Below, in pieces: positions 35,517-35,598 of a stretch of 64,000 bases of DNA. Source of the DNA: Escherichia phage vB_Ec-M-J; the sequence record OQ718158.1. One strand, given 5' to 3'. The notes under the pieces are model-generated. The model had not been told where the DNA came from. It saw only the letters and a list, made by a program, of their open reading frames with translations, and did not search any database. The translations under genes were made by a program, and so were the position numbers. Within the stretch, counting starts at the first letter, position 1. Each line of letters begins with the position of its first letter.

Positions 35517-35598
35517 CCGGGCGTATCTCAACGGTCTTCTAAACCGTCGTTAATCGAGTAACTGGAGTATGCAGGTTCGAGTCCTGTCGCCTGGGCCA
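35517..35598 (+). tRNA. tRNA-like element, possibly a degenerate tRNA-Arg (anticodon TCT), no D-arm
   Basis: Acceptor ccgggcg/cgcctgg, T-arm gcagg ttcgagt cctgt, anticodon arm acggt cttctaa accgt near-identical to adjacent tRNA-Ser, only 7 nt where the D-arm should be. Confidence 0.35.

Follow-up and report, generated by a model that had tools for sequence, protein, structure and literature searches.

Transfer RNAs (tRNAs) that depart from the ordinary cloverleaf have been described in several settings. D-armless tRNAs were reportedly modelled by Steinberg, Gautheret and Cedergren in 1994 with an anticodon helix extended by pairs between the connector that replaces the D arm and the variable region, and permuted tRNAs are said to have been engineered by Pan and Uhlenbeck in 1991. 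The D-armless tRNA-Ser(GCU/UCU) of metazoan mitochondria have no D hairpin before the anticodon arm, and some of them carry the anticodon UCU (PMC7609411); in the circularly permuted tRNA genes of Cyanidioschyzon merolae, the tRNA segments are reordered and the fold is kept (PMC3978253); and tRNA-Sec, tRNA-Pyl and allo-tRNAs, some of which occur in phages, are conserved departures from the 7/5 cloverleaf that tRNA finders miss or mislabel (PMC7609411, PMC5389517). Here, we analysed a stretch of 64,000 nucleotides (nt) of Escherichia phage vB_Ec-M-J (record OQ718158.1; referred to below as the window), in which an 82-nt element at positions 35517-35598 of the + strand resembles a tRNA gene without being a standard one. 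Comparison with its relatives indicates, with a probability that we put at roughly 70%, that this element encodes an arginine tRNA of rearranged structure (anticodon UCU, codon AGA), which belongs to a phage-restricted family.

ARAGORN called five tRNAs in the window, among them tRNA-Ser(TGA) at 35423-35512, and made no call at 35517-35598. The original prediction, made from the letters alone, had placed an 82-nt element four nucleotides after this tRNA-Ser, with an acceptor stem ccgggcg/cgcctgg and a canonical T arm, and had counted 7 nt at the D-arm position and about 23 nt after the anticodon arm; all of this is found at 35517-35598, the spacer from the tRNA-Ser being AAAT (4 nt). The parts of the locus are as follows (counts refer to the family alignment described below).

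35423-35512, + strand: canonical class II tRNA-Ser(TGA) with encoded CCA (ARAGORN; Rfam tRNA model, 60.1 bits)
35517-35523, + strand: 5' strand of the acceptor stem, CCGGGCG, partner CGCCTGG at 35588-35594 (compensatory changes in 7/7 pairs; 99.2% of cells paired)
35524-35526, + strand: connector UAU, invariant in 70/70
35527-35530, + strand: CTCA, 5' strand of the D-stem-like helix around the anticodon arm; partner of CTC is GAG at 35556-35558 (covariation)
35531-35547, + strand: anticodon arm ACGGT-CTTCTAA-ACCGT, with anticodon TCT at 35538-35540 predicted to read AGA (5/5 pairs covary)
35548-35554, + strand: 7-nt bulge CGTTAAT from the anticodon stem to the 3' strand of the bracketing helix (CGTTAA in 54/70, CATTAA in 11, others in 5)
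35555-35558, + strand: CGAG, 3' strand of the D-stem-like helix (same covariation as 35527-35530)
35559-35570, + strand: D-loop-like motif TAACTGGAGTAT (TAAnTGGAGTAT or a form one base shorter in 66/70)
35571-35587, + strand: T arm GCAGG-TTCGAGT-CCTGT with a canonical T loop (4/5 pairs covary; 99.1% of cells paired)
35588-35598, + strand: 3' strand of the acceptor stem, CGCCTGG (35588-35594), G73 (35595) and encoded CCA (35596-35598) (covariation)

The family alignment (A3) comprises 70 distinct sequences, whose membership was decided by pairing in the acceptor, anticodon and T stems only. The bracketing helix played no part in selecting the members, and its signal is therefore not circular. 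Paired cells make up 94.5% in A3; sliding the 3' partners by one to three columns lowers this to 35-43%, and the observed values were reached in none of 500 shuffles. Compensatory changes occur in 19 of the 25 pairs tested, and two-sided changes in 16 of the 17 pairs of the acceptor (7/7), anticodon (5/5) and T (4/5) stems (n=70); in the window copy, the acceptor stem has seven pairs, one of them G-U. On this comparative evidence, the short helix 35527-35529/35556-35558 brackets the anticodon arm and is one of four helices supported by covariation. Its outer column, 11:42 (C35527-G35558), is C-G in 70/70; column 12:41 is U-A in 40, G-C in 18 and A-U in 12 sequences, and column 13:40 is C-G in 53, G-C in 9 and U-A in 8 (n=70 for both). 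Neither of these two columns is ever unpaired, and the mutual information of each equals its full column entropy. At column 14:39, A35530 stands opposite C35555 and the combination is mostly A.C or C.A, with a Watson-Crick or G-U pair in 18/70, and the third U of the connector (35526) faces an invariant U at 35559, adding a U.U layer outside the bracketing helix.

The element had been described as D-armless, and this holds in part. A D hairpin is missing from its usual position: the acceptor 5' strand and the anticodon arm of the window copy are separated by TATCTCA (7 nt) only, and no stem 10-13/22-25 enclosing a D loop is found between position 9 and the anticodon arm. However, three of these bases form pairs with three bases of the 23-nt stretch (35548-35570) that separates the anticodon arm from the T arm, and a D-loop-like motif is present. 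The element is not of the D-armless mitochondrial type either, as its connector takes part in a covarying helix and the D-loop-like motif contains GG. This motif, nearly invariant as UAAYUGGAGUAU, lies 3' of the bracketing helix; its GG (35564-35565) is invariant, and an A follows directly in 69/70. The D loops of canonical phage tRNA-Arg read AATTGGATA or AGTTGGATA, and the motif resembles them, for instance AAUUGGAUA in phage G17 and AGUUGGAUA in locus L037. We infer that the parts of the D arm are present in another order, with the D stem closing around the anticodon arm and the D-loop sequence in the place of the variable loop. The GG would then correspond to G18/G19, A35566 to A20, the final T of the motif to U48 and the first two bases of the UAU connector to U8 and A9, and the 7-nt bulge at 35548-35554 is possibly an analogue of the variable loop.

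The Rfam tRNA model (RF00005) aligns to the element end to end with 32.6 bits (E = 4.8e-4), above its gathering score of 29 and far beyond what chance would give, and does so with model positions 10-25, the D arm, deleted. The features shared with this model are the 7-base-pair (bp) acceptor stem, the discriminator and CCA, the 5-bp T stem with its T loop, and the 5-bp anticodon stem with a 7-nt loop and U33. An E-value scan of 34500-39500 revealed no other Rfam family explaining the element; there was only a weak sX4 match of 25.5 bits against a gathering score of 70, which covers the tRNA-Ser and part of the element. No finder gave a standard cloverleaf with other boundaries, and none came from ARAGORN in the window. 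Among the options that had been put forward, that of a non-canonical tRNA-like RNA is thus supported.

The long stretch after the anticodon arm, together with the G73 and the tRNA-Ser-like anticodon stem of the window copy, might instead point to a serine-accepting tRNA with an arginine anticodon, in which AGA would be recoded as serine and the 23-nt stretch would be a class II variable arm. This explanation draws on the neighbouring tRNA-Ser and on an analogy to the D-armless mitochondrial tRNA-Ser(UCU), and in the window copy GUUA (35549-35552) could indeed pair with UAAC (35559-35562). Across the family, however, compensatory changes are missing from this candidate helix, and 13 of the 62 scorable sequences leave its closing pair open, another 8 being gapped at the column; the GUUA/UAAY pairing, whether as variable arm or as pseudoknot, was dropped. 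No paired variable stem-loop of class II type was found between the anticodon and T arms, and part of the 23-nt stretch pairs with the 5' connector instead. Moreover, the discriminator is A in 29/70, and the A20-like base and the exclusively arginine anticodons fit arginyl-tRNA synthetase (ArgRS) and not seryl-tRNA synthetase. We consider recoding to serine very improbable.

In E. coli, arginine identity is determined by A20, the main determinant, together with C35, U/G36 and A/G73 (PMC9976931). The positions that would correspond to these are kept in the family: A after GG in 69/70, C35 in 70/70, U/G36 in 70/70 and A/G73 in 64/70 (discriminator G in 35, A in 29, U in 5 and C in 1), and CCA is encoded in 47/70. 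If the A after GG is position 20, the E. coli-type identity set for arginine is present in the sequence. The anticodon loops are CTTCTAA (56), CTTCTAC (7), TTTCTAC (3), TTCCTAA (2), TTTCTAA (1) and CTTCGAA (1) (n=70). A scan that left the anticodon unconstrained, fixing no more than the D-loop-like motif and the beginning of the T loop, returned the anticodons UCU, CCU and UCG only. A covariance model built from A3 gave 83-101 bits for members (98.1 for the window copy) and 41-59 bits for four divergent relatives, and every canonical tRNA searched stayed below 38 bits; the four relatives keep GGA and C35 and carry the anticodons ACG, UCU, GCG and UCG. All anticodons of the family (UCU, CCU, UCG, ACG and GCG) are thus those of arginine. 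A structural descriptor devoid of any family sequence motif, run on all fetched loci, gave 49 distinct hits, of which 48 had arginine anticodons and one was a false positive. Rearranged tRNAs for other amino acids were found neither with the covariance model (856 kb) nor with the motif-free descriptor in the fetched loci, all of which had been fetched with patterns of the arginine family and do not amount to a global survey.

With the 82-nt sequence alone as query, 271 phage records were matched, 262 of them over at least 80% of the query. They include Asteriusvirus, Felixounavirus (with Felix O1), Vequintavirinae, Justusliebigvirus, Klebsiella phages of 110 kb and 143 kb, N4-like phages (Bas93, HC-25922) and Streptomyces phages (Genie2, Yaboi), and IMG/VR contributed about 100 further viral contigs in three pattern scans. 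Between Asteriusvirus, Felix O1 and Klebsiella phages, the copies share 90-91% identity. The element was absent from 5,426 complete E. coli genomes (0/5,426), and a scan of one genome per species for 185,579 species found the pattern on four metagenome-assembled contigs only; an origin from the host or from prophages was rejected on these two results, and by the same searches the family is restricted to phages. The phage of the window is a jumbo coliphage of the Asteriusvirus type (PBECO4/121Q group): its region 35300-35700 is 93-98.5% identical to BF17, Turkey3, PBECO4 and others, and 121Q matches it at 95.7% identity over 76% of its length, the element included. Within 400 nt of the element, 18 of 76 loci carry genes for HNH homing endonucleases (for example, L007:134-583 and L009:1089-1598, L numbers designating retrieved loci), which fall into at least three unrelated families (Pfam HNH_2, HNH_3 and a weak match to HNH_3). 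There is no baseline from other phage tRNA genes and no specific association is claimed, but these neighbours hint at mobility and could explain the spread among unrelated phages.

Public annotations under the matches are inconsistent: none, tRNA-OTHER, tRNA-Undet, tRNA-Leu, tRNA-Val or overlapping hypothetical open reading frames (ORFs). The element is labelled tRNA-Leu(taa) in 121Q (gene 124; L002:421-502) and tRNA-Val in Yaboi (gene 148), and in Felix O1 (L008), as in some relatives, it is overlapped by a predicted ORF, ORF100 in that phage. In a few other loci, ARAGORN called the element only by borrowing flanking bases, giving 'tRNA-Arg' models of 91-96 nt. The open-access literature, including a 2020 review of non-canonical tRNAs, yielded no description of a rearranged tRNA-Arg; an earlier description is possible, and as far as this literature goes the family appears to be undescribed.

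These confused labels, the missing ARAGORN call and the anticodon stem, ACGGT/ACCGT, which is the same as in the neighbouring tRNA-Ser, are what could be expected of a functionless degenerate copy, whether a pseudogene or the product of a partial duplication of the adjacent tRNA-Ser or of its recombination with a former tRNA-Arg. The original prediction had considered both a partial duplication and a pseudogene, and it was right that the two anticodon arms differ in the loop only; the loops differ at two bases, anticodon positions 35 and 36. However, ACGGT/ACCGT is the commonest variant of the family and also occurs where no adjacent tRNA-Ser is called, as in A5-4, so that identity of the stems is not evidence of duplication; Hallingskeid, which has a canonical tRNA-Arg, has this same tRNA-Ser stem. 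The pseudogene fares no better: unrelated phages hold 70 distinct copies, in which every helix shows compensatory substitutions and the loops hardly vary, and the compensatory changes exclude recent transfers of one inert sequence. We regard a degenerate copy as a negligible prospect.

In the sister Asteriusviruses UE-S1 and G17, a canonical 77-nt tRNA-Arg(TCT) lies 4 nt after the tRNA-Ser, with the same 3' flank as in the window, and in Hallingskeid, an Erwinia jumbo phage of more distant relationship, the gene directly after the tRNA-Ser is again a canonical tRNA-Arg(TCT), with a 6-nt spacer by ARAGORN coordinates. The comparison with related phages that had been called for thus produced both a family of 70 copies and the canonical gene at the same position in UE-S1 and G17, and it shows, as judged from the flanking sequences, that the element replaces a canonical tRNA-Arg(UCU) in the same slot. 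The anticodon stem of the tRNA-Ser(TGA) differs by Asteriusvirus clade (L001:430-519 and L003:347-436 against 35423-35512 of the window). It is ACGGT/ACCGT before the rearranged gene, and before the canonical tRNA-Arg it is CTTGT/ACAAG in G17 and CTTGT/ACAAGA in UE-S1, which suggests that the tRNA-Ser/tRNA-Arg pair has been exchanged as a module between Asteriusvirus clades.

A separate canonical Arg(tct) beside the element was found in only 2 of 106 element-bearing loci (L037 and L113). Of these loci, 34 hold 10-28 tRNAs each, and Arg(acg) is present in most large clusters. Contig L142 carries three rearranged genes, with anticodons UCU, GCG and UCG, and in L043, a contig of Streptomyces-phage type, canonical tRNAs with GCG, UCG and CCU and the element (UCU) make up a complete arginine set. 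AGA is rare in E. coli; in the + strand ORFs of the window, whose G+C content is 35%, it accounts for 17% of the arginine codons. The Felix O1 genome paper noted that AGA is over-represented and that a tRNA for AGA 'might have been expected', and its table of 22 tRNAs lists none between 25,584 and 26,975 (PMC3185647). The Felix O1 copy of the element lies at 25,951-26,032.

A stable tRNA-like RNA acting outside translation would be another explanation for so conserved an element. It could donate arginine to a non-ribosomal reaction, or it could be a decoy or inhibitor of an enzyme that recognizes tRNA-Arg, for example ArgRS itself, a modification enzyme or a colicin D-type anticodon nuclease. 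Conservation is higher in the anticodon loop and the D-loop-like motif than in the helices, as would be expected of protein-recognition surfaces; no tRNA known to function with bacterial EF-Tu and ribosomes has a core connected in this way; and two loci have kept a canonical tRNA-Arg(UCU) beside the element. However, the element retains a full 7-bp acceptor stem, A or G as the discriminator, CCA in the gene and a canonical T loop, none of which a decoy would need. Moreover, a decoy would not be expected to take over the slot of the canonical tRNA-Arg(UCU), to avoid it almost completely in clusters rich in tRNA genes or to enter complementary sets of isoacceptors such as those of L142 and L043. 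A role outside translation seems unlikely to us, and the rearranged tRNA-Arg most probably descends from an ordinary tRNA-Arg(UCU) and works like it.

We infer that this tRNA-Arg is transcribed, processed, folded into a tRNA-like three-dimensional structure, arginylated and used for decoding on the ribosome. The tRNA-Ser and the element together occupy a 240-nt intergenic gap, and no ORF of at least 30 amino acids overlaps the element on either strand. One candidate promoter precedes them:

35383-35412, + strand: sigma-70-like promoter candidate (TTGGAA, 18-nt spacer, TATAAT, upstream TG; consensus match only)

This candidate ends about 10 nt 5' of the tRNA-Ser and probably drives a dimeric transcript of the tRNA-Ser and the element; the region has no excess of promoter-like sites over shuffled sequences. 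The element would be co-transcribed with the upstream tRNA-Ser and then cut out by the ordinary tRNA processing enzymes, since its acceptor/T-arm half is fully canonical and CCA is encoded. In the RNA, CUC (35527-35529), right after U8-A9, would pair with GAG (35556-35558) beyond the anticodon arm, so that the L-shape would be reached by an unusual route. The equivalent of the D stem and the anticodon stem would form one long hairpin, the layers of which (U.U, three pairs, one A.C and five anticodon pairs) would match the canonical stack of a four-layer D stem, the 26:44 layer and the anticodon stem. In canonical numbering, and with geometry deciding which strand of the helix is which, the chain would run through 1-7; U8 and A9; the equivalent of 22-26; the anticodon arm; the 7-nt bulge; the equivalent of 44 and 10-13; the D loop; U48; and the T arm, with the D-loop segment in the order A14, A15, Y16, U17, G18, G19, A20, two extra bases and A21. 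A chain rearranged in this way would retain the bases for the U8-A14, A15-U48 and G18/G19-T loop contacts, plus A20. The D-loop equivalent AAYUGGAGUA would lead into the T stem, its GG could dock on the T loop, and A35566 could act as the A20 determinant for ArgRS. Charged with arginine, the element would supply the AGA decoder that an AT-rich phage needs and that is scarce in the host.

Several points weigh against a rearranged, working tRNA-Arg. The bracketing helix consists of three reliable pairs only, closing a 1x7 internal loop, and it appears neither in the minimum free energy (MFE) fold of the single sequence (z = -0.61) nor in RNAalifold, so that it stands on covariation alone. Energy-based prediction would miss it because it is too short; both methods recovered the three long helices and placed in the 23-nt stretch a mini-hairpin that lacks support. 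The L-shape from such a connectivity is argued from textbook tRNA geometry, and the support is comparative throughout. To our knowledge, no bacterial EF-Tu or ribosome uses tRNAs with a core of this kind, and we see no advantage that would favour the rearranged form over an ordinary tRNA-Arg. Exclusivity is not strict, as L037 and L113 carry both forms, and the loci are partial genome segments retrieved with family-derived patterns, so that the statement that no canonical Arg(tct) is present holds for the sampled neighbourhoods and not always for whole genomes. A further-reaching proposal would be that we are dealing with an unrecognised natural tRNA architecture, specific for arginine, with a transposed core and fully active in translation, which has been kept because the altered core escapes an agent acting on ordinary tRNA-Arg, be it a host defence that targets tRNAs or the phage's own attack on host tRNAs. 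We hold this proposal as a whole to be possible but doubtful, and escape from a tRNA-Arg-directed nuclease as the reason for the rearranged core is speculation.

If the element is charged and decodes AGA, a natural L-shape can arise from a different chain connectivity, and this connectivity is accepted by the bacterial RNase P, ArgRS, EF-Tu and ribosome. Phages of the Felix O1 and rV5 types and some jumbo, N4-like and Streptomyces phages would then only seem to be without an AGA decoder, their gene having been missed or mislabelled, and the analyses of codon usage and tRNA complement of these widely used therapeutic and typing phages would be incomplete. The restriction to arginine and to phages would also raise the question of what acts on tRNA-Arg during infection, and the scaffold could serve the design of orthogonal tRNAs.

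Other features were noted around the element. Directly after it in the window lie three tandem paralogous 54-amino-acid ORFs on the + strand (35620-35784, 35781-35945 and 35942-36106), each of which starts with MTHEEWM and overlaps the next by ATGA; they correspond to 121Q genes 125-127, annotated as hypothetical proteins. In three viral contigs, the element adjoins a homologue of Pfam Translat_reg, a RegA-like phage translational regulator (E = 1e-44; for example, L079:9164-9580). In uncultured viral contigs, it adjoins tRNA-Ile(TAT) genes of 91-94 nt (L031:4163-4256, - strand; L059:2516-2609, + strand; L050:1612-1702, + strand), which have a normal D arm and a long extra arm after the anticodon arm and may represent another non-standard phage tRNA, for the rare codon AUA. 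ARAGORN also reported 'tRNA-???' genes with two-base anticodons (L012:2598-2672, L014:262-337, L052:5383-5457, L012:928-997 and L067:1770-1845); they sit in rV5-like and other tRNA clusters as further odd tRNA-like genes. Finally, the tRNA cluster of the Streptomyces-phage-like contig L043 includes a tmRNA gene (L043:6424-6703) with the tag peptide ANSMNASAFALAA.

Compared with the systems described so far, the element combines familiar parts in an order of its own. In tRNA-Sec, tRNA-Pyl and allo-tRNAs, the helix lengths vary (8/4, 9/3, long D stems), but the order of the arms is normal, and none of them has a D stem around the anticodon arm. Permuted tRNAs either are canonical once processed, as the natural ones are, or have their 5' and 3' ends moved, whereas the element has its ends where they normally lie, a transposed internal segment and no sign of processing motifs, so that the mature RNA itself would have a new connectivity. 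The D-armless mitochondrial tRNA-Ser are organellar, serine-accepting and short, with a loose elbow and without the conserved GG motif of the D loop; in contrast, the phage family has a strict D-loop-like motif, a canonical T loop and the arginine identity positions, and is longer than a normal tRNA. The closest counterpart is the canonical tRNA-Arg(UCU) of the E. coli argU type, as found in UE-S1 and G17. In comparison with it, the core segments of the element are reordered, with a D-stem-like helix around the anticodon arm and a D-loop-like sequence 3' of it, and a conserved 7-nt bulge, CGUUAAN, is added, giving 82 instead of 77 nt. Both have the 7-bp acceptor stem, A/G73 and CCA, the 5-bp T arm with a UUCGA loop, the 5-bp anticodon stem with a 7-nt loop in which UCU is followed by A37 and A38, and AAYUGGA of D-loop type; with the gene of UE-S1 and G17, the element has moreover in common the genomic slot, the flanks and the presumed role of reading AGA.

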